Shown: positions 36,558-62,327 of the stretch, in pieces | Position numbering within the stretch: the stretch's first letter is position 1 | How the letters are laid out: each line of letters begins with the position of its first letter | Assembly (NCBI RefSeq): GCF_003704095.1 | Contig: NW_020846334.1 | Coordinates: forward strand, 1-64,000 | Origin: Pocillopora damicornis | Taxonomy: Eukaryota | Reading direction: 5' to 3' | Length of the DNA: 64,000 nt | The notes under the pieces: model-generated | Databases searched by the model: none | Told to the model about the DNA's origin: nothing | The model's input: the letters and a program-made list of their open reading frames with translations, nothing else | Made by a program: the position numbers and the translations under genes

Positions 36558-39500
36558 TCAAAGCTTTTTCAACTCAATGTGAACAGCTCGTTTCCGATAC
36601 TCCGTGGCCTTTCTCAAGTCACCCAGCTGATGATGTAATACACTTAAGGTATGGTATGAACGTGCGACATCATCGTGGTTGGGTCCAAGCTTTTTCAATC
36701 GAATCTGCAGGGCAATTTCAAAGCATTCTTGGGCCTGTTGTAGATCATCTAACTGCTGATATACTACACCCATGTTATGGCAGCTGAGTGCGACATGGAT
36801 ATCCTCGATTCCAAACATTCTCTGCCGAATGTCTAGAGCACGTGCATAATCTGTTATGGCCTGTGGCAGGTTACCCAAGCTAAGGTTTACATTACCCAGG
36901 CTATGGTAAGTACGCGCGACAGCGACCTGCAGAAATGCATGCTTTCTCAGGAGTCGAAGCGTTCTGAGCCTAATAGTTAGAGAACGTTCGTAATGTTCCT
37001 TGGCGAACTGTAGGTCACCAACGTTAAGGTATGCATTACCTTGGTTCTCGTGCATAGACGCAATGTTTAGAGCTCGTTTGTAATACTCCTTGGCCTTTCT
37101 CAAGTCACCCAGCTGCTGATGTGCAACACCTAAAGTATGGTATGAAAGAGCGACATCGCTGTGGTTGGGTCCAAGCTTTTTCAATCGAATCTGCAGGGCA
37201 ATTTCAAAGCATTCTTGGGCCTGTTGCAGATCACCTAACTGCTGATATACTTCACCCATGTTATGGCAGCTGAGCGCGACATGGATATCCTCGATTCCAA
37301 ACATTCTCTGCCGAATGTCTAGAGCACGTGCATAATCTGTTATGGCCTGTCGCAGGTTACCCAAGTTAAGGTTTACATAACCCAGGCTATGGTAAGTACG
37401 CGCGACATCAACATGCGTAGGTCCAAGCTTTTTTAATTGAATGTCTAGAGCACGTTCGTAATGGTCTTTGGCCTGTTGCAGATCACGCAAGTCGATGTGG
37501 TGAGCGATGGCAACATCTACATATCCGGGTCCAAGTATTTTCAACTGACTGTCTAAAGGACGTTCATAAGGCTCCTGAACCTGTTGAAAATCCCCCAAGA
37601 ACTTTGGCTTTGTGGGACTCAAGCTACTGTGAGCATCCGCGACATCAACGTGCTCTTTGCCGTATGGCAGGGTCGTCCCTCTCGGTTTTGCATCATTGAC
37701 TATTTATAAATGATTCAAGCCAATATTAACTTAAATTTAACTTTATTTTGGTGGAGTCACTAGAATTTCTTTTGAAACCTGGTGGGAAGGATGAAGTTTC
37801 AGTTCAGCTGGGTTTAAAATGAAGTATCGGCATAATTCACTATGGAATTCACCTATAGTTGAAAGCTAAACCGTAGAAAGAACATTACAATCTCTCACAC
37901 TGTTTCCTTTTGAACAGCACACTATTGTATCTTATTTGAAATGTTATCAGCTTGTCCGGTTGTCTCGATATTAGGGCATCTTTGCGTTTGAAATGCGTTT
38001 TTCATCATATACTAATAACTCGATTTGTGCCAAAAATAGCCAGAAACGCAATATTCGATCATGGGAGAGTAAGCGTGCTCATGCTTGTTACGTTTGTGGA
38101 ATAAGCTGACGTTTTATGCTACGCGCGAGACAAATGTATATAAATTTTGTCGAATGCTTCTTCTGGAAATCGACTTGAAACAGCTTTCTACACTAACCTG
38201 AGCATTTCATGAAATACTCTTGAGCGGCTCTATATTCCTCTTCTCGAATCGTTGTCGATAACTGCACCTCAACGAGACCAAACTTGTTTAGAATTTCCTC
38301 TGTGACAAGATGTTTTTGTGCCATCTCATTGAGATGGCCCGTGCAATGGTCATCCCACAGTTCGTCTAATACCTGCAGAGAGCTACATTCCACTGTTATA
38401 ATAATGCTTCCTATTTGAGTGTCAACAAGCAGCAATTTGCGCACGTCCCTGAGATATTGCAGAAACTCATTTCGCTCATGCGGGCTGGATGCATCAACTT
38501 CCTTGAAATACTTGAGTGCGATGAAATTCAGAACCTCCTCAGAACTAGGTAAACAATCACTTCCAATCCTCATTGCCTCAGAGCCTCTTGTACTTCCATT
38601 TTCTTGTTGAAGCGATGATGCAGTAGGAGGCATTTCATTATGCTTAACTCCTACAACTGTTTTCCTCTCGATATCAGAACCCTCAGATGTTAGCACCATC
38701 AAACCTGAGGCTCCAGGTACTGGAGATTCTTTGATGGTCTTACAGTCAATCCGCATTTGAAGCTGAACTATTTGGATAAAAAGTTTCATCAACCAATGTT
38801 ACTTCAGGTACCACGATAGGGATGTGGCAACTCAAGCCTCTGCCCTCTTACTTTTAAATGGTACCGTTGATCTCAGACGTGTTTTCCGATACTTAAACTT
38901 TACAACGCGTTAAGAGCTGATAATTTCAATCAGTGATTTCCAAACTCTGATTACGCAATGCATAAAGTTCGTGCCTGCGAGTTGGAACATGTGAACTGAC
39001 AGTGACTGAAATATGAATCTGCGCTCTTACACATTTTAGTTTCTAAATTTCAATAAGCTTCAAGTCAGGTTTGGTTGAATAGAGGAGACTTGGGACCAAA
39101 TGATTCCTGTGCGACATGGAATTGTACCGAAACGTTTTATCACAGTTTTCACACTGACATCTTACACGAACAATTGGTGGGTAATTGCACATAGACTTTT
39201 GCCGCCGGTTCAACTTTTTCGGACCGGGAACAGGAAATTTTGTACCACTTCATTAGTATTTAAATCCGCAAAACGATATTGTCGAGCCGTTAGTTGGTAA
39301 CGTTCGGGCCCTTTCAGAAAATGTGTGGATTAAATGGTCAAAGAAGCTAATTTGAGGTTGTTAGGAGAAGATAAATTTCATATCTACAAGCAACCATGTA
39401 TTATTTTTTTATCATATAAACAGAATAGCCCTTTACTGACAAATAATTTATCGATCCAGTACCGAGCTGGTCTGTAAAATGTTGCAAGAGTTGTCTTGTG

Positions 39501-40842
39501 AACAAATCACACCGATGAGTGCTAGTCAGATTGCAAGGATCACCAATGATTTCAAAATGGGTGTAATATATCTTTTGATGTTACAGNNNNNNNNNNNNNN
39601 NNNNNNNNNNNNNNNNNNNNNNNNNNNNNNNNNNNNNNNNNNNNNNNNNNNNNNNNNNNNNNNNNNNNNNNNNNNNNNNNNNNNNNGTTTGTCAAGCTGA
39701 TCCTTTAAGTTTTGAGCTTCCTCTCCTAGCTGATCCTTTATGTTTTGAGCTTCCTCTCCTAGCTGATCCTTTATGTTTTGAACTTCCTCTCGGACTTCTT
39801 GTCGCAGAGATGTTACGGCTTCTTTAGTTGCAGCTATTACTTTACCCCCCAGCTGATCTTTGATATATTTAGCTTCCTCTTGAAACTCTTGTCGTAGAGA
39901 TTGTACCTCTTCAGTGGCGGCTTTCATTTCCCCTCCAAGCTGATCTTTAATATCTTTAGCTTCTTCTCTAAGTTCTCGCCTCAAGAACTGTACTTCTTCA
40001 GTTGTCGTTTTTACTTCATCTCCAAGCTGATCTTTGATGTTCTGGACTTCTTGTCTTACACACTGAGCATCTTTTCTTGTAGTTTTTAGTTCCTCTTCAA
40101 GCTGATTTTTAATGCCTTGGGCTTCCTCGTGAAAAGTCGTCTCCAAAGTTTTTCCTTTCTCCTCTATTGTATTTTGGACGTCCTGGATAGAAGAGTTGAG
40201 CTTTACCACTAATTCCTTTATTTCTATATCGTTTCTATACCAGTGTAGTAATTCCTTTACATTTCTGTCATCCTCCGCAGTGAGAGGATCATTCAAAAGT
40301 TTATCAATGGCATCCTCCCACTCAGTTCCCTTTGTTGAGCTAATTGATCTAGCAATTCTCAATAGAGCCTCTCTGATTTCTTGCCAGAGTAATTGAAACT
40401 CTTCATCTCTGATCTCCATGCGTTGATTCACATGACCGTACACGGTGTTTCGATAATATTTGATTCTCGCTAAATCCGCAGCTAAACTGTGGTCTGTACT
40501 TGCCGGTAGATCGTCCCATCCCGAGGCTGTAGGATGGAGGTTGCATATTGTCCGTAGCAACTTAAAGAGCAGAGTCACATCGAAATCTTCTGATTTGCCA
40601 TACGTCCCTGGGGAGGGGTAAAGACAATCCCACTGTGGTTTGGTGATCCTTGCTGCTGCGAGCTGGCTTTTTATAGCCGGATCATTTAATATTGTGGGGA
40701 GGTCTTTTGGTGGATGTATCTTGTCGAAAATTTCTCGTAGTATCATCGTTCCTCCGCAGATCAGCAGTCGTGCTGCACGTTGGAAATTCGTTTTCTCAGG
40801 AGTTGAATCAAGCGCCTTACTGGGGTCTGTGGCGGCTGCCAT
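36558..40842 (-). CDS. DZIP3-like HEPN, coiled-coil repeats, TRADD-N-like domain, TPR protein (no NTPase seen); 3' end decaying
   Basis: Exon A 40842-~39687 runs into a gap (NFQRAARLLICGG...FDVTLLFKLLRTIC...DLARIKYYRNTVYGH, then EEAQNIKDQLG repeats). Exon B 38767-38198 (GSIIITVECSSLQVLDELWDDHCTGHLNEMAQK) is flanked by phase-1 sites. Exon C 37699-36558 is a TPR array with a phase-1 acceptor. Exon joining is inferred from phase only. Confidence 0.7.
39687..40060 (-). repeat. Coding tandem repeats, 33-bp and ~87-bp units
   Basis: AGCTGATCCTTTATGTTTTGAGCTTCCTCTCCT repeats into the gap. Protein units are EEAQNIKDQLG (11 aa) and ~29-aa units. Confidence 0.85.
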
Positions 40843-43800
40843 TTCACCAATGAGATAACTGCAAAAACATAACACCACGTTTGATCCCTCATTAACTAGC
40901 AATGGATAGCTATCAACCCTTGACCCAAACCCTTCTCCTTTCTGACAGAGCGACTCCTGTCTTAAATGAGTGTTAACTTTGAAAACTTAGCCACACCGTT
41001 GTCGTTCTTTAAAAAATCAGGTTTGTTTTCTTCTGCTCTACCGTTTCGCTTTCTGCACCTTACAGCCCGGTGCATACCTGGACTCTGGAATAGAATGATT
41101 GTTACACAGTTGTACAGCTTACTCTTTCTTATCTTGCTGGCTCAGTTGAGCTTTTTAATCAAGCTGAGCTAGTTTGCTATGTACAATCATCTTCGATGTT
41201 CGCCCGGTTAACATGTTAATGTTTTAATTCAGTACCAAGATGACTCCTCTATCAATCACTTAGTCTTTTCCGTTCACTTTGTTTTAGTTTACAGCAAGAT
41301 TTAACGACGCTCTTCATTGTATGTTCGATTTTTTTGCGTCATGATTCTCTTAATCCGTGAAAAATTACATCAAGTACCAAAGAAATACCATTAAAACGAA
41401 AAAATAGAAAAGAAATGCACTCGTCATAGCAGCCTGTTTCTGTTCTCATTACGTGTATGTTTCATTTTAACTCCTGCGTTTTCAATTCAGTTTTAACCCT
41501 GTAGTCCGCAAATATATGCAAAAATACATTTTTACATGTATTAAACATGCATTCAAAAATACTTATGGCAGCCTTCCGTCCCTGGCGGCGATAGATCAAT
41601 TGCAACGTCTCTCCTGAATCACCAAAGTTATTAACATTTGATGAGACCGTATGATCCCGAATATTTTCTCTTCAGGAGAAATCTGAAAGGAGGCCTTCAA
41701 CTCCAATGTACAGCGAGAATTTGAAAATATTCTAAACTTTTTCCGGCTTTAATTTGATTTAGAGTCCTCATTATCATTTTTCAAAATCAGCCAGCGTGAA
41801 CGTGAACACTTATCTAAAAGAGTTCTTGAACTAAAAAGTTTACAAAGTGCAAGCATGTCAAACGTTTCTCTATCTCATCTCCTCAAAGCTGTTAACCAGT
41901 AAATCTTCCTTCATATTACATATAATGGGTTTGATTTGATTGTTTTTCAAATTTTTGAGGTGCTGCATGCGACCCCCGCGGTAGTTCTAATCAAATATAC
42001 GCTTCATTTGCGATGACAACAACTGAGATGCGTCGATTGTCGTAAGAATGCTGGATGAAATTAAGCAGTATATGAGCGCTGAAAGATCTAGGAAATGATA
42101 AAAGTAACGCTAAAATATCAGTCTCTTTTTGATGTCGATGCTGAAAAGCCAATTGAAAAATAGGCTTCGTGATGCGTTGGAGAGCAATCGGACAAGGAAC
42201 GACATTGAAATCTATACTTCACTCTTATTCGGTTATTACTAAAACTGGTACTACATATGATTTGTCTTTTTGAAAGTTCTTAATCGGCAGTTTTTATACA
42301 TGCACAGTATTTATCACGCTACCTCGATAGAATGCTTGTGATAGCTTCTTCCGGTTTTGGAATTTTTGGGAACATTTAATCAAATCGATTTTCATCCTGT
42401 ATTGTCAAATAATACACACTATTTCACTATTTGCGCAGAGTGTTCATGTACTCACCATTTGCAGTTTCAGGAACTAGCCATGATTGCACTGCTAGTTTAA
42501 AACAGAGGAGCCCCAAAATGAGAATTGTGATGAAGCAAGCGGAAGTCGGCTACGGGGTTTCCCATCAATCAATGGAGCTTGCAGTAGAGAAATGTAGGCA
42601 AGCAATGCGTGCATGCATAGTTTCCTCCCTCTCTTTCTCATTCATTCTGCATCATTTCAACTGTATTTCATTTATCACATATGATTTATTATTTTTTACC
42701 AACTCGCGCTTTAATTTGGAATGCAAATAAAGATCACCTTCTAGTGAAGATTTTTTTTATGGATTTTTAGCGAAAAGAAAAAGATTTAGCGCCAATAGGG
42801 ATAAAAAATTTAGATCTAATTCATTATTCAACAATTATACACTTATCATCTATTAACATACGACCATTAAGCCTTTGAAGACTTATTTTTTAAAATAAAC
42901 TCATCATTTTTGTGTCTTTTTCTCTTGAAGAGATGCTGCGGGTTTTTGCGTAATTTGTGCATGAAGAATTTACAGCTGTGCATCTGTATTTAGGCGAAGA
43001 CGTTATGCGGTAGCTGGAACAGGATTGCGTATTAAAGATATATTGCTAACGCGAGAAAGCTCCAACAGTGAACGTTGATTTCAACTCTAACACCCAGAAC
43101 TGTGTAATGAGATTTAAGGGAGAAGATGACTTGTTTTTATTTATAAAGAGAGTTTAAACCATTTATTTTGCGTCTACAAAGCTATACGTTGTTTTGGAAG
43201 TTTAATACGATTACGGCAAAAACAAAACGATGGTCTGAACTCTCGCAAGCATATCGATTGTTGTATAATGCACCGACTAGCTATTTAGATTCACATGGTT
43301 CATTTTTATATTTTAAATCTAACAATTACATCAGTTAACTGTTTTTCTATTCGGCGTCTGAGTCACCATAGGACGCCTTTTCATTTACTCTCAAATCAGC
43401 TCGGAAATTTTTCACTACTAAAAAAGTAAACTAGGAGCAGTCCCCCCCTTTTCGGCAGAGTGCGTCACGCGAGTCAGAAAAAAAAATTTGGTAAAAAAAA
43501 AATTGACGTAAGCGCCCCAAGGGAAGCTCTGGGTGAGGCACTTGAAAAGTAGGCCTCACTCCCAGGGCTCCCCACGACGCGCTAACATCAACTTTTTTTT
43601 TCACTAATTTTTTTTTACTTGCGCGATGGACTTCGCGATTCAGCAAACGTCCACCACTTTTCACCTCCACTTTTCACCTCCACTTTAGTTAATTATCGTT
43701 AATCATAATATTGTAAAGAATATTATTTAAATGGAATAAAACTACTCTTATCGAAAAAGTTCATCCAAATGCGCTATTTTGTCTTTTAACTTAGTGTGTC

Positions 43801-44019: not shown

Positions 44020-44987
44020 ACTCATCAGAAGCTTTTTTGGTGTTGCATTGTCTTGTGCTTCAGTCATACAGAGGCCGTTTGCTGCAAACCGACCCTGTTA
44101 CCACTCAGGCTATTTGGACGAAGCTCTTCCTTCTTATAGCAAACACAAGGTTATATTTTTATTGCTTCATGGCGAAATCTTGGGCAACGAAAAGCATAAA
44201 TAACGGGATTCACCGTCAAACCGATGAGAGCAAGCAATAAAGAGATCAGCTCGTAGTTTGTTATCCGTTCTTTTCTCGCCAACTGTTTCGCGATTGGCTT
44301 TTAATGTAACAGTAAGGATAATGAAAAGTTTGGTCAGTTTGCGGCGCGATTTTAAGAGTGCTGTGTTCGTGGCTTTATTCTCCTCAGCATTAAACCACAC
44401 ATGATAAATCACATGCGAGTAACAGTAGATAAAAACAGTACTTGGTATAACAAGACAGATTGCTAGTAAAAAAAAAATGCGTAGGCAATATGAACAGTTT
44501 CGATATCAGTGGGTGATGAATCTTCCGTTGTCGTGGTAACATTATTACAAACATATCTGACCCGAAACATCTTTGAATCGATGATCGATGCTCCCATACC
44601 TAAAATTATGACTTAAAACCATATTTTGAGAGTAACTTTCCACATCAGAGACTTGCCCACTTTTTTCATGTGCACAAAAGATTTAAGAATCAAATAGTAT
44701 CTCTCCGCTGCCAACACAACAAGAAAAAGACTAGACCCCAAAGCATTCTAAACAAACTGGAAGTGAGAAAAGTAAGGCATACTGTAGCAAATAGGAAATA
44801 TTTCCACGAAAGAGGATGTGGAAAAAGTAAATACGAGTAGGCCAGCTGGCCTATCAGCCACGTATTCAAATTTAAAAGTTTCCAGCGCCTGAAAATGATA
44901 ACAAGGACGAGGAAATTCCCAAAAATGATGAATAGAATCATCAAGAGGAGCGGAAAGCACAGAAATAGCCAAATTTAAATCCTCCAT
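44020..44987 (-). pseudogene. GPCR pseudogene, paralog of 33914-34912
   Basis: Fragments in different frames: MEDLNLAISVLSAP, FGNFLVLVII, IYHVWFNAEENKATNTALLKSRRKLTKLFII, LLALIGLTVNPVIYAFRCPRFRHE. TM6 is partly deleted. Confidence 0.85.
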
Positions 44988-45819
44988 TGCAGAACAACTG
45001 CAAAATATCTGAAACGAAATAAAAGCAACATGAAAATCTTTTGCGATCCTGAATTGCAGGGCAGTTTACCCAGATAAGCAAGACTCAACAACACGAGAAA
45101 TGCCTTCGTTTAAGTAAAGTTCTGTCTAAATTTTAATTTGGCATGGTCGCAGTATATAACTAATATAATAAGGTATACTCCTGTTTTTTAAATCTATCAA
45201 CAATTTGTGCTTTAAGTTTTTGTAATCAGGAGTATGAGACAGCTTTCCCTACCCTAATAACACAAATGCTATAAGTTTTGATTCAAATTTCATTTGCTAA
45301 CAAGACAACAGAATAATTAACCTTGCGGCGATCATATTTCAACAAGAATTGGTGTCGTCCAAAAAAAGAAAAGCAAAATAAAAAAACAGTGTATTCATTC
45401 AAAATAATTTTTTCATCATGAGAACTCTAGTAATGTATTCTTTCTTCTATTCATTAAAATATTTTTAAGTTTTCCATAACAACTCAGTTTTAAATTTCCT
45501 TTCTATTGAGAAAGTAAACACATGACTGTTTTTACCCTCAGCTAAATTAATTCATCTTCCAAATGAGAGTGATATATAAACAATTTCAGGCGGCTGAAGA
45601 GACCAATTTAGCCCTTTATTGACTTGGATATGGTATGGGTGGTCTTTTAAAAGTAAATAGAGTAACTCGCTGAGGCAGATACTCTCTTTAAAACTTTGAC
45701 AGAATCGTCCGTCCAAACTTAAAAACTGTATTTCAAATGCATCGATGAACAGTTCGAAGTAGTGCATGCGGAGAGTATATGCGCTTTTGCTAAAAGTTGT
45801 GATCATTTTAATTCGGCAT

Positions 45820-46573
45820 TAAACTTGGAGAAAGCATTAGCGGTAGATGGTAGATTCGCTGGTTCATTCTGATAATAATGATATTTTTCTGGAATAAATA
45901 AAATGTTTGAAATTGGAAAAGTTCAAGAATAAACTATAGACAGAAAACCGTTTGACGATTGGTCTCCCAAATGTTGGAGTCCAAGTAATTATGAATGTTG
46001 TAGTGAAGATGACGAAAAGATTTGTTGGTTTCCAACGTGATTTGAAGAGAGCAAGGTTTGTAGTTTTGTCTTCCAATTTGAACCATACGCGATCATTACC
46101 CGTGAGTAACAGAAAATCACTGCCATATTCGGTAGAATTGACCACACGCAAGAAGGACGAATGTGTAGTGTAGTGTTAATAGTTTCTGATACACCTAGCG
46201 CATTGCTTGTGCAGCTAATCGAAGCATTATTCGAAGAATACTTAATCGCAGCAGTCCAATGATGAGTTGTCATTCCCACAGAACCTAAAAATGCCAACAG
46301 TAATCCATATCGGTAACCTTATTCAAAAGTGATGTTTGCTTTTTTCAGGTGCACGAATGGTCTTAAATTTGGATAGTACCTCTCCGCCGCCGGAGCAACC
46401 CGAAAGTAACTTGGGTCCAAGGCATGTACAAGGTATTGGATAGAGGAATATGGAATGCTGAACACGAGCAAAATTATATCCACGAAAGTGTAAAGAGAGC
46501 AAAATAGATCGGACCAAGCAAGTTGGGGTATGAGGTACGCGTTTCCTACACTTTTACGAGATAAGGCCTCCAA
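45820..46573 (-). pseudogene. More degraded GPCR pseudogene of the same family
   Basis: NAYLIPQLAWSDLF, AERYYPNLRPFVHLKK, VWFKLEDKTTNLALFKSRWK...ITWTPTFGR occur in shifting frames. TM1 is missing. Confidence 0.8.
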
Positions 46574-48556
46574 AGTTTATATTTAGAATGTTAACGGGGC
46601 TCGTACGCACTAAAGCGCGTACGCGGATCCCCCTTTTCAAGAGAATATGTAAAACCATCAGGTCAAGATTAGTTGCGTTCGCGTTAGTTATGGCTTTCCG
46701 TTCAGCTGCCCGCAAAACTATATTCCAACGCGGGAAAAGCTGTTTAGGGGTGACACATAGAGGCAGTGCCCATAGGGAGTAGCTGAGATGCGTGTTTTAT
46801 GAATTTTGAGTTCTCTTTAAACCCGCCTCCTCAAAGTCAAACTTAAATCATTTTCTTCTTTCGATATAGCGATAGTTTTAGCTCTTGCCTTACAAGTTCG
46901 GCTTATTTGAGAAACAAATGATGGGTAGCAAGGATTAAATAACGGGCTGATTCTGTACATAATTTTACTTCTGAAATGACGTATGTATTAATGTCTTCAG
47001 TTCCTCGTCGCTATGGGAATTGCACAACTTTTTTGAATCAATCGCCTTAGAACACCAGGGAAATGAAGCGCCGTCCTAAATCTAATTTTGACCGATTGCT
47101 GTCCAAACCCAAAATGAAATTTTTTTGTTTTGTTTGTCTATCTCTGAGTTATATGTAATTATATGTAGTTCTGAGAAATATTTACTCTGCTGTTTATGGT
47201 TTTCCACGAAAATTTCAATGGTTGACTTCCTGTCCACAGAACAAAGTAGGTTGGTGTTTGCACTCCAAAAAACTTAAGTGGTCTTCCATGTAAGAGAATG
47301 AAATTAGACAGCTGATCTATTACAATCGAACACTTGTTTCCCATTTTACCTTTATCAAGGAACTTTAACACAGGCTAAATTGGAAAAAATTAACCCTGCT
47401 CCAAACATGCAAAATTCATTAACACCATCTCATTCCTCTCTCTCTCCGGCAGCGAAGAATTCTTGCGCTGTCGCATCGACGTTTTCCTAAAAGAACGCAA
47501 CGTAAAGAATTAAAATTTTGACTCTCTTCACCTGTTTTTTTACTTAATGAAAACCGTGAAAAAGTACGCAAGTGCAAGTAATGTCAAAAAAACTGTTCAA
47601 ATGCTTTTCAATTCCAAAACAAACAAATTTGAATAATAGCTTTTATTTTAATTTTCAGTCAATAATTTTTAAAGTTGTAAAGAAGGTCGCTATTTATTGA
47701 GACACGTGGAAATTAAATAAATTACGAAGAGTCAAATAACTCTTGCCTACTTTTATTCAGTAAATTCTGTTACCTGGACGATAAGCAATGTAAAGATATC
47801 ATAATCACATATATTTTCATAGTTTTACAACAAATTTGGAAATGGTGTAGTTAAATGGCGGGAAAGCACAGATCAAGCCAAACCTCGATTTCTTAATTCA
47901 CGCAGAGAGAGAAATGAACTTCTCTTTGTTAGAGGCTTCCAAAAGGTTATCCCCACAGAGAGAGGCAGCAAGACGACATCAATCATATCTCCTAAACCTC
48001 ATAGAGTGAACTCTTCGTTTCCGGATAAGATTATTTGTTTTTAATTCAAATTGAAATCCCTTGTTAGCAGAGAGAACATCCAATCAACAAATACAGTGTG
48101 ATAACTTGTCTGTCCTCTAATCTACATTGTAAACCAATGAATAACTTAGTCCACCTGATCTCGAGATTAAAGTCTGATCACGAAAGACTGATATCATATT
48201 CAAGGTCAATTCTTGTTATCGCCTAATCTCTATATTCAGTTCTGTTAATGGCCTTGTGATCTATTAGCATAGAGCATCTATTGTCTTAAAAGAGTCCATC
48301 ATGAGAAACAAGAAAAATCGAAGCTGTGAAATTAATTTGGCATGTGGATTGATTGTCAAAAATGCCTTTATGGTATGAAATGACTTTCCAAATTATTCTC
48401 GACTTCAATCTATTTATTTGTTTAATGCTAAAAGTAAACTTAATTTAATCCTCAGTGGTGCAGCTCTGATCCACACTTGAAAAGGAGCGGAAGAGCCTTT
48501 CTTCAACGCCACAGTCAAGAAGTCAAGTAGTCTTCCCGAGCTTTTGGCTGTCAGCC

Positions 48557-49522
48557 ATGAACGAAGAAATTCGTCTATTGGCAGGGTTTGTTTCGCTGCC
48601 AATCTTCATTTGCAATGTAATTGGAAATGCACTCGTCATTGCAGTTGTTAAAATGAACAAAAAGATGCAATGTCCAAATACCTACCTGCTGTCCTGGCTC
48701 GCTCTGAGCGACTTGAGTTTTGGATTCATCGCCGAAACAAACATCTATTTATTAGCAAATGGCGCCAAGGGCCGTCTGTATGGAACATATATGTTTCACA
48801 CTTTGCATTCGATTCTTATTTTGACTCTGCTTTCGATCGAAAGATACCTTGCGATTTTAAAGCCATTTTACTACAAAGCTAAGGTTACCAAATCTCTCGT
48901 AGCAAAACTCCTGTGGATAATATTGGCCTTCACTGCAATCGTTACTGCACCAAGTTACTATCTACTGGGAAACGGTTATAACATGCTGGAAGTTTGTGCA
49001 AAATCGAAGTTAGACGAAATTGCCACTATAGGTTATTTAGCCGCGCTTCTGATGATCTCGATAACAGTTCCTGGCGTTGTCATGTGTTCTTGCTACACCA
49101 GAATAATAAAACATGTCTGGTTTAGCGACGAGGCCAAAAATGCAAAGAACAAAGCCCTTTTGAGATCTCGGTGGAAATTGACCAAGATTTTCATAGCCGC
49201 GACAATAGTTTTCGCCGTTAGTTGGTCGCCATCTTTTGGAAAGCTTTCTGCCAAAAGCTTTCGATGCAGCGAACGTTTTGTACTTTACGAAGCAATCTAT
49301 ATTTTGTTAGCGCTGTTAGGATCCACGGCTAATCCCATAATGTATTCGTTTCGTTGTTCAGGATTCAGACAAGCGGTGAAGGAGTTGTTCAGCAAAAAGT
49401 GCTGCAGAAAACATCGTATCAACTCGAGAAAATCAATGCCAGACAGTGTCACAGGCAGGAGACCGCGTTGTGACCAAACAAGGCAAAGTGACGTGATACT
49501 TCTTAGTGTTCGAAAGACATAG
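48557..49522 (+). CDS. Intronless orphan rhodopsin-class GPCR, 321 aa
   Basis: GNALVI, LALSDL, IERY, HVWFSDEAKNAKNKALLRSRWKLTKIF, SWSP, NPIMYSFRC. Confidence 0.92.
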   Translation: MNEEIRLLAGFVSLPIFICNVIGNALVIAVVKMNKKMQCPNTYLLSWLALSDLSFGFIAETNIYLLANGAKGRLYGTYMFHTLHSILILTLLSIERYLAILKPFYYKAKVTKSLVAKLLWIILAFTAIVTAPSYYLLGNGYNMLEVCAKSKLDEIATIGYLAALLMISITVPGVVMCSCYTRIIKHVWFSDEAKNAKNKALLRSRWKLTKIFIAATIVFAVSWSPSFGKLSAKSFRCSERFVLYEAIYILLALLGSTANPIMYSFRCSGFRQAVKELFSKKCCRKHRINSRKSMPDSVTGRRPRCDQTRQSDVILLSVRKT

Positions 49523-60316: not shown

Positions 60317-60607
60317 AAGTAATAATTTACTGTGGAGCCAAAAATCCCGAACTTCTTAATTTTTTCGCCGAAAAATTGAATTACAGCCACCACGTGAGGG
60401 TTGAAATGCGCGCGCACGATTTCTTCACTTCCGGTAAAATCTTGAAAATCATTTTACAGCGAAAATCTACCCATTGAACACCTACTTTTTTAAGAATTTG
60501 AAAATTTATTTGCTATGTATCGAAATTATTTATTTATTTCGGTAGAGATTGTTTAAACTGAACAAAATCAGCAAAATGTTTCTTTAGCCGGCTCCGCCAT
60601 ATTGAAA
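60317..60607. promoter_or_regulatory. Putative bidirectional promoter ABCE1 / mTERF
   Basis: Divergent genes. CACGTG at ~60391, GCGCGCGC at ~60408, ACTTCCGG (ETS) at ~60427, CCGCCAT (YY1-like) at ~60594. Confidence 0.6.
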
Positions 60608-62327
60608 ATGGTGCAATACTCTTCTATTTGGTTATGTAGGACAACACCAAAATTCCTATCATGAACACAAGAATTCCTATCATGTCCAGTCCCTCTTTCC
60701 CCCACGTGTGCCATCTGAACTCAATATGGCGATCGCGTGGTTTTCATGTAGAGAATGTTTTTCTTACACTTTATTTAGGCTAAAAGGAATCTATCGCCTT
60801 GCTTTCCGTACTAATCGCTACTTCACAACTCCAGATCTTGGATCTGCTGTCAGCTGGAAAGAGGAGAAAGGTTTGATCGTCGATGATCGTAGCCAAAAGT
60901 CTTCCAAGAAAGATGATCTAAAGTTTCCTCGTCACTGGAAGGCAAAAACTCAACAAAAGACGCCAAAGGGTCAACAAGAAATACCACCTCATGAAGCCTT
61001 GAACTTATACCGATACGTGAAGAAACTGGAAACAACTTTAGGGCGCGGTAAAGGTTCCATTTCGAAAAGATGGTCGTATCTTCTAACAAAATACCTCAAA
61101 GCATACAATAAGCTAAATTGTTCTTCTGCTTTGTTATCCGAATCACCTCGGATTCTTGGCCTGACACCAAAGCTTCTTGAAGAGAGATTGAATTTCCTCT
61201 CCCAGATAGGGATCACTGGAAGGGATGCCTTGATAATTGCTCTGGAGTTTCCTGCCATCCTTTCGTGGGATTCACCCAACTTTATTGAGATGCTGAAAGT
61301 GCTCAAAGATTTGAACTGTGATATCGTCACCTTAATGTTTAAAACACCATATGTCTTCAGCCTTGATCAGAGCAGAGTTCAAGAAAATATCCGCAAACTT
61401 ACATCAGCTGGGATCGCAAAAAATATCATTGGGAAAATCATTTCAAATAATCCTCTGCTTCTCAGCTTCCCGCTTAGAGAGGAGTCTTTAGAGATTGTTT
61501 CTCTTTTGCTTAATTCGCATAAGAAGTTACAATCAGAATTGACAGGCAAAAGCCTTAAGGAAGAGGAGGCAGTCCTAAACTTAATCCTTCACTCTGCTGA
61601 GAAATTTAAAGAGCAGGTCGATTTGCAGGAAAATTTCAAGGAAGTCATAAGTTTTCTTGAAGAAATGGAGGTATCCCCACTTATCATTGCAGTCACAAAC
61701 CCAGTAATCTTTTCTACTGATGTTGATACTTTGAGTACTTCAGTGGCATTTTTGAGGAGCAAGCCCCTTTTGCTAGATATGGAGGCAGTGCAGCACCTTC
61801 TGATTACAAAGCCAGAAATATTTGTAAATTTGGACTCTGTGAAAAATAGGATTCAGCTGCTTTGTGATATTGTCCAAAACCCAACAGTACTTTACAGTCT
61901 TGTCAAAACAAGACAGTTTTTGTTTGACAGCAAAAATTCTACTGTGGAGGCTGTTATCAAATGGTTTCAGGATAGAGGTATCAAGAACAAAGAGATTGCT
62001 CATGTCATGACAGCAAAAAACTTCTTTTTCCTCGAGAAAGAGGAATTGGATGAGAAACTGGAATATCTATTGTCAGTTGGAGTGAAAGTTGAAGATGTCA
62101 TTAAACATCCATCATGTCTTTTGAAACCCATCGCTCATCTTAAAGAGAGAGTTGAGTTTGTAAAAGCAGAAAAACCAGAAGTTTTAAGCAACAGAAGCCT
62201 TGATGATGTTATGTTATCAAAGAATGAGCTCTTTGCTAATGAGGTGTGTGGATCAACACTGGAAAACTACACAGAATTTGTTCAATCACTGAACAAGGAG
62301 TTTGTTAAGGCTGGCAAAAAGAAGTGA
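60608..62327 (+). CDS. mTERF-family mitochondrial protein
   Basis: mTERF repeats (PRILGLTPKLLEERLNFLSQIG; LEYLLSVGV...IKHPSCLL...LKERVEFV). Preferred model: exon 60608-60630 (TG|gttatg) plus 60779-62327, giving a presequence-like N-terminus MVQYSSIWLKGIYRLAFRTNRYF. Alternative unspliced start at 60726. Confidence 0.8.

Follow-up and report, generated by a model that had tools for sequence, protein, structure and literature searches.

The 64,000-nucleotide (nt) stretch of the coral Pocillopora damicornis analysed here (assembly GCF_003704095.1, contig NW_020846334.1, positions 1 to 64,000; "the window", to which all positions refer) carries a minus-strand gene whose predicted protein combines a HEPN domain, an amphipathic repeat coil, a TRADD-N-like domain and tetratricopeptide repeats (TPRs) in the absence of a nucleoside triphosphatase (NTPase). 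An original prediction made from the sequence alone had proposed this gene to be an exon-shuffled receptor and a possible partner or decoy of a neighbouring HEPN-STAND-TPR gene. P0002, the Pocillopora meandrina model used for comparison throughout, is its ortholog. The following features are referred to below:

Minus strand: whole gene with exons A, B and C, encoding an NTPase-less HEPN–coil–TRADD-N–TPR protein.
39687..40858, minus strand: exon A, coding sequence from the ATG at 40842; HEPN and amphipathic repeats.
40267..40710, minus strand: DZIP3/hRUL138-like HEPN (PF18738, amino acids 45-192, E 8e-41).
40432..40452, minus strand: R-x5-H motif RNTVYGH, predicted ribonuclease (RNase) site, intact.
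39688..40227, minus strand: 11/29-residue amphipathic repeats, predicted coiled coil, hydrophobic period 3.65.
39587..39686, no strand: stretch of 100 N, probably covering the ~12 final exon A codons and the donor, as judged from RNA contig X18 record 23 and P0002.
38198..38767, minus strand: exon B, 570 nt, AG/GT borders, phase 1 at both ends; TRADD-N-like domain.
38762-38727, minus strand: predicted first strand of exon B, set off from the core by a disordered insert.
38714-38559, minus strand: predicted disordered insert of exon B, ~50 residues, after strand 1.
38411-38406, minus strand: GS turn of exon B, the uS motif.
36558..37699, minus strand: coding part of exon C; nine 42-residue TPR units, several shortened or degenerate.
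35834..36557, minus strand: 3' untranslated region (UTR), covered by RNA contigs (records 6, 12, 22 and 29).
36317..36557, minus strand: decayed TPR continuation in the 3' UTR, about two units, frameshifted.
22971..27054, minus strand: the neighbour, a separate gene with a single open reading frame (ORF) for HEPN (RNDEFAH type)-STAND-TPR; P-loop GNPGSGKS at 26321-26298.

These exons form one expressed gene. The stretch is present in 20 of the 24 listed sequencing runs, six of them RNA, and our RNA analysis draws on four RNA runs from four studies, whose assembled contigs show presence and not co-expression. RNA cover reaches all three exons, and the transcript extends at its 3' end at least to 35834. 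The splice from the assembly gap to 38767 that the original prediction had posited is seen in a single RNA contig, X18 record 23, which covers 40719-39728 and 38769-38198 in frame; past 39728 come 44 nt before the acceptor at 38767, and phase 1 is kept. Because just these 44 nt separate 39728 from exon B, no NTPase exon lies in the gap in the X18 transcript, and an NTPase hidden in 39587-39686 is ruled out for that transcript. The exon A reading frame comprises 385 open codons from the ATG at 40842 to the N stretch at 39686, at whose site P0002 has 12 residues. Joined to exon C, record 23 implies a protein of 956 amino acids, and the protein predicted here has about 956-966; the X18 transcript is ~10 codons shorter than the window allele with a P0002-type 12-residue tail, a shortfall that probably equals one 11-residue repeat fewer.

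The second joint, 38198>37699 between exons B and C, is likely real. Contigs of X15, X17 and X18 cease to match exactly at 38198 and continue for another 37, 197 and 176 letters, respectively, and RNA depth in the intron bins equals the expectation from exons only (6.42 observed vs 6.41, and 9.31 vs 9.07), with an X18 depth of 9.45 over 37381-37699 vs 8.7 for record 23. P0002 joins exons A, B and C at the same points, likewise without an NTPase, and keeps the same start and stop of exon C; the nearest named relatives are Pocillopora proteins. Another 5' exon precedes exon A, whose start at 40858 is marked by RNA contigs X15 record 8 and X17 record 16, which match to 40859, adjoining an acceptor AG. 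A candidate for this exon at 41122-41190 (minus strand) shows a 91% match to the first coding exon in the P0002 model and was rejected for an in-frame stop. Because of this stop in 41190-41122, and because the additional 54 letters in X15 record 8 come with no added depth in 40860-41262, we assign the 5' exon no position. At the other end, the 3' UTR finishes in a short interspersed repeat of very high RNA-contig depth (35671-35863 of the window), of which copies also lie at 1882, 10132, 53990 and 62949, and this repeat may supply the transcript end.

The HEPN domain of exon A scores 139.6 bits against the PF18738 profile (cut-off 27) and is one of at least 90 HEPN matches in the P. damicornis genome. 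R and H of its Rx4-6H motif are present in 64 of 69 aligned homologues, and the neighbour's HEPN has the motif RNDEFAH at 26711, with R-x5-H kept in 115 of 116 family rows. Profile-profile comparison of the two HEPNs gives 88% probability and 20% identity over 69 columns, so that, as far as sequence tells, they are distant homologues, and the original prediction was right to assign them to different subtypes. The gene belongs to the same HEPN family, with the same motif, as the PF18738 domains of Anantharaman et al. 2013 (PMC3710099, in the part drawn on here), and the relevant parts of that paper and of two others (PMC8260672, PMC10236652) describe an anthozoan expansion of DZIP3-type HEPNs and their fusion to TPR, NACHT and LRR. 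The anthozoan HEPN-NACHT-LRR receptors of the latter two papers, as far as described there, differ from this gene in their NACHT and LRR, both of which are absent here. Placed in a HEPN tree from which rows P0012, P0014 and P0028, which do not have the motif pattern, were left out, this gene is sister to P0002 (support 99/96), and cassette-type HEPNs form a clade separate from the NACHT-LRR type (100/100).

The 11/29-residue amphipathic repeats claimed from the first inspection are also found: identity autocorrelation gives z values of 5.7 (lag 11) and 7.7 (lag 29) relative to 1000 shuffles, and the spacing of KDQL-type motifs is 25, 29, 29, 30, 11 and 11. The copy number of these repeats seems to vary. 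Within the repeat region, three linked differences at 39829, 39836 and 39843 occur in two or three RNA runs, and two of them alter residues.

Exon B, thought from its first inspection to resemble a TRADD-N domain, does match TRADD-like_N (PF20694), scoring 29.5 bits (cut-off 23.7), and the P. damicornis genome holds at least 18 such TRADD-N-like matches. An AlphaFold2 model of the whole exon predicts a strand at residues 2-13, disorder at 18-69, helices and then three further strands, together a four-stranded topology of RRM/ACT-like type. The GS motif (G119-S120), invariant in all 18 alignment rows, forms in this model the hairpin turn between strands 2 and 3 (E111-117, E120-125), and its position matches the definition of the uS motif in the part of Kaur et al. 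2021 (PMC8195603) considered here. The predicted fold and the uS turn motif appear to be shared with the vertebrate TRADD N-terminal domain (PDB 1F2H, 1F3V), from which this gene differs by the ~50 disordered residues inserted after strand 1 and by having no Death domain. The model aligns to 1F2H with Z 5.1 and a root mean square deviation of 4.4 over 104 residues within 1-185 at 9% identity, and Z drops to 3.4 when the first strand is left out; as predicted from the 18-row alignment, the TRADD-N first strand would be split from its core. A Foldseek search with both exon B models returned no match at E 0.001, a PDB sequence search with the TRADD-N core gave 0 matches at E 10, and a metagenome contig scan with exon B gave 65 pattern matches and no relative.

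Looking at homologues, these N-terminal parts recur together while what follows them changes. Two paralogs in this genome, on contigs C1462 and C386, have a TRADD-N exon that stops at the same phase-1 donor, with PARP14-like KH/Macro and polyubiquitin ORFs nearby, and in the GT4-linked copy on C392 the TRADD-N ends at the equivalent position. From a search that scored the 7992 candidates with most shared words, 17 of 35 long homologues contain TRADD-like_N, and none of these 17 contains NACHT or NB-ARC; tails among the homologues include ubiquitin repeats, Ras, RVT and Ifi-6-16, and cassette-only proteins exist. By sequence criteria, the HEPN–coil–TRADD-N cassette stays constant while its tail is exchanged (polyubiquitin, PARP14-like, Ras, TPR), and the absence of STAND is therefore normal. 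The TRADD-N here is single and internal, placed between the constant N-terminal and the variable C-terminal parts. With paralogs that share the phase-1 donor and carry different tails, the idea of an exon-shuffled, expressed chimera without an NTPase holds. At the cassette paralog on C386 (G000:C386:279500-289400), we observed two tandem HEPN exons, a TRADD-N exon with stop codons and, between two N stretches, a polyubiquitin ORF on the opposite strand, possibly owing to a scaffolding inversion.

The P-loop reported as not visible is indeed not found as a [GA]xxxxGK[ST] motif in the six frames of 36500-41300, outside the unread letters at 39587-39686, nor is there a significant relic of the neighbour's HEPN-STAND part in this interval (best tblastn E 0.029). 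NLR and STAND receptors are recognized by a STAND NTPase with a P-loop, which this gene does not have. Two published STAND-bearing relatives are listed with the same N-terminal cassette and TPR end and differ by a STAND and wHTH after TRADD-N, where this gene has its fully read, relic-free B-C intron of 498 nt; going by these listed architectures, loss of STAND from a STAND-bearing cassette gene may have given rise to this one. The proposal that the coiled coil replaces STAND is not supported, because the coil is constant in the HEPN exon whatever the tail and because coil and STAND occur together in a Stylophora protein.

The architecture itself is already catalogued in corals and anemones. 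Within the parts of Kaur et al. 2021 (PMC8195603) covered here, which for Figure 4-source data 1 are HEPN places 1-45 of 210 and TPR places 31-60 of 152, cnidarian expansions of DEDD2-clade TRADD-N are described with an N-terminal HEPN and variable tails. One listed Pocillopora protein, RMX40274.1, has the identical domain order without an NTPase and shares with this gene the TRADD-N at the constant/variable junction and the GS turn motif; it is 829 amino acids long vs about 956-966 here and is likened by listed architecture. Among the TPR places just named are another seven HEPN-TRADD-N-TPR rows without an NTPase, from Stylophora and Exaiptasia, and the matching architecture rows would place this gene in the DEDD2 rather than the NCOA6 clade. 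Since the word "exon" is absent from the main text of PMC8195603, what we add to this catalogue is the layout of the phase-1 exon, the origin of the TPR exon as a truncated piece and the predicted split of the first strand. An experimental study of the HEPN–coil–TRADD-N cassette was not found in a literature search whose coverage excluded most subscription papers.

The nine 42-residue TPR units of exon C belong, as originally proposed, to the same family as those of the neighbour, and the top own-genome matches of exon C are all arrays of this HEPN-STAND-TPR family, which has matches on 20 contigs. Part of the exon arose by an internal duplication of 359 nt (37058-37416 / 36572-36930, 92% identity). 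TPR homology starts 12 codons into exon C, the gap-free B-C intron has no TPR-array match, and beyond the stop the 3' UTR retains a TPR relic (nhmmer 23.6 bits vs a maximum of 0.6 in 300 shuffles) that a protein-level hidden Markov model missed (1.9 bits vs a shuffled maximum of 3.7). Because the homology begins inside the exon, is absent from the intron and persists past the stop, exon C is a piece of a longer array, and its sequence assigns this truncated piece to the gene family of the neighbour. The donor was likely an old local duplicate of this family, since the chance of finding a family member within 10 kb is ~0.002 (20 members, 234 Mb). A recent direct copy from the neighbour is not supported: exon C and the neighbour's TPRs share 56% identity (rank 27 of 117 segments), the exon C branch is long, and trees of the best 45 and then the best 20 of the 117 segments marginally reject the two as a clade (approximately unbiased test, p-AU 0.049). 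Elsewhere in the genome (G000:C371:157417-158511), we noted a 502-residue ORF with TPRs of this family, whose contig gave no STAND match and which may be another STAND-less TPR exon.

The neighbour's first 36 codons lie under the N stretch 26955-27054; since P0040, 99% identical to it, has 36 more N-terminal residues, this 100-N stretch hides at least 108 nt. That the NTPase-less protein senses or executes in complex with the neighbour's product, as a sensor/helper pair, is a reading that we consider highly improbable. It draws on the distance of 9.5 kb between the genes, on RNA cover of both in all four runs (which were chosen with this gene and speak to presence only), on the neighbour being narrowly the best own-genome TPR match of exon C (141.6 bits vs 139.6, 138.9 and 138.6, with C464 and C3336 nearly tied) and on P0002 and the family member P0065 probably sharing one scaffold. 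However, P0065 is just 67% identical to the neighbour, which carries its own intact HEPN and P-loop, and the TPR rank and the marginally rejected clade given above count against a pair as well. The two genes stand in tandem on one strand with two G protein-coupled receptor (GPCR) genes between them; a head-to-head layout is typical of plant pairs. Nor is recurrent linkage of the two types of gene seen, as none of 19 other contigs with neighbour-type STAND matches has a TRADD-N exon match and none of 12 other TRADD-N contigs has a neighbour-type STAND, both lower bounds in a fragmented assembly. A decoy or dominant-negative protein that soaks up the ligand of a STAND-TPR receptor or poisons HEPN dimers might be expected to share its TPR family with STAND-TPR-type genes, found on at least 20 contigs, and to have no switch domain, as is the case here. 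Such a role is very unlikely all the same and fits poorly with the intact, family-typical catalytic motif; the TPRs reach at most about 59% identity with any receptor and show no special closeness to the neighbour over other members of the family, and identity between the two HEPNs is just 20%. That the two genes lie near each other is best explained by local duplication rather than by a partnership.

At a probability of roughly 60%, we favour the reading that the gene encodes a stand-alone, ligand-gated immune RNase without an ATP switch, its TPR tail captured from an old local HEPN-STAND-TPR copy. TRADD-N has been proposed, in the part of Kaur et al. 2021 (PMC8195603) used here, to keep its flanks inactive until a signal shifts an interface at a conserved serine. 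Following this proposal, the TRADD-N between the constant and variable parts would hold both inactive until a ligand bound to the TPRs shifts its interface at the GS turn. As the HEPN nucleases characterised so far all need two domains that form a composite site (bioRxiv 10.1101/760058, in the part considered), two HEPNs, probably paired by the coil, would then make such a site in line with general HEPN enzymology and might cut viral or host RNA. A more specific version, in which the first TRADD-N strand is tied to HEPN-coil, the disordered loop serves as a pathogen-protease tripwire or allosteric latch freeing an ATP-independent RNase, and the phase-1 donor is a socket for sensor exons of dead neighbouring receptors, is speculative and in our view unlikely.

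Several observations weigh against a ligand-gated RNase. RNase activity, ligand, oligomer and every functional step are ones that we infer. The match to the TRADD-N fold is non-specific, with 1F2H at rank 9 and tied, to within 1 Z, with further ACT/RRM-like chains. The joint between exons B and C was not directly observed in RNA and rests on splice signals, frame, depth arithmetic and the P0002 model, which is imperfect given that three internal stretches of about 150, 34 and 70 residues are absent from it. Furthermore, exon C looks worn: its units score 22.7-59.5 bits vs 28.4-74.0 for the neighbour's 15 main TPR units (with a profile that included the neighbour's allele), one unit has a 6-residue deletion relative to P0002, its branch is long (0.65-0.77), and the dN/dS of 0.74 between the internal duplicates is indistinguishable from neutral (p 0.66). 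This wear raises the main rival possibility, which we hold only tentatively, that the cassette does the work and that the TPR tail, captured recently, is a largely passive and near-neutral appendage, with the trigger acting via TRADD-N contacts or with the gene in slow decay. The degenerate first unit, the deleted and shortened units, the premature stop with decayed repeats behind it and the non-significant dN/dS would suit a passive tail, as would the cassette-only proteins and the finding that, of three RNA variants listed within exons B and C or at their borders, one alters a residue. Yet 380 codons remain open, with start and stop kept in P0002, and the recurrence of NTPase-less HEPN-TRADD-N-TPR proteins in Stylophora and Exaiptasia suggests that the combination is useful.

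The remainder of the window holds a cluster of rhodopsin-family GPCR genes (29933-31053, 33914-34963, 44167-46318 and 48470-49522), two of them intact-looking and the others split across frames. An intronless open frame of 393 residues at 19417-20598 (plus strand) carries Ion_trans and cNMP_binding as a segment of a cyclic-nucleotide-gated channel, a tandem 30-nt repeat at 20738-21093 gives rise to short repetitive ORFs on both strands, and a single ORF at 60606-62327 (plus strand) encodes an mTERF protein.

With a checked gene model, this locus offers a clear case of how a coral immune chimera was assembled, from a symmetric phase-1 TRADD-N exon and a captured TPR exon, cut short, with its lost repeats still recognizable in the 3' UTR. 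Having an intact RNase motif and no ATPase, the gene would make a compact test case for the proposal that TRADD-N acts as a conformational switch, and likewise for the proposed immune RNase role of coral DZIP3-type HEPNs.

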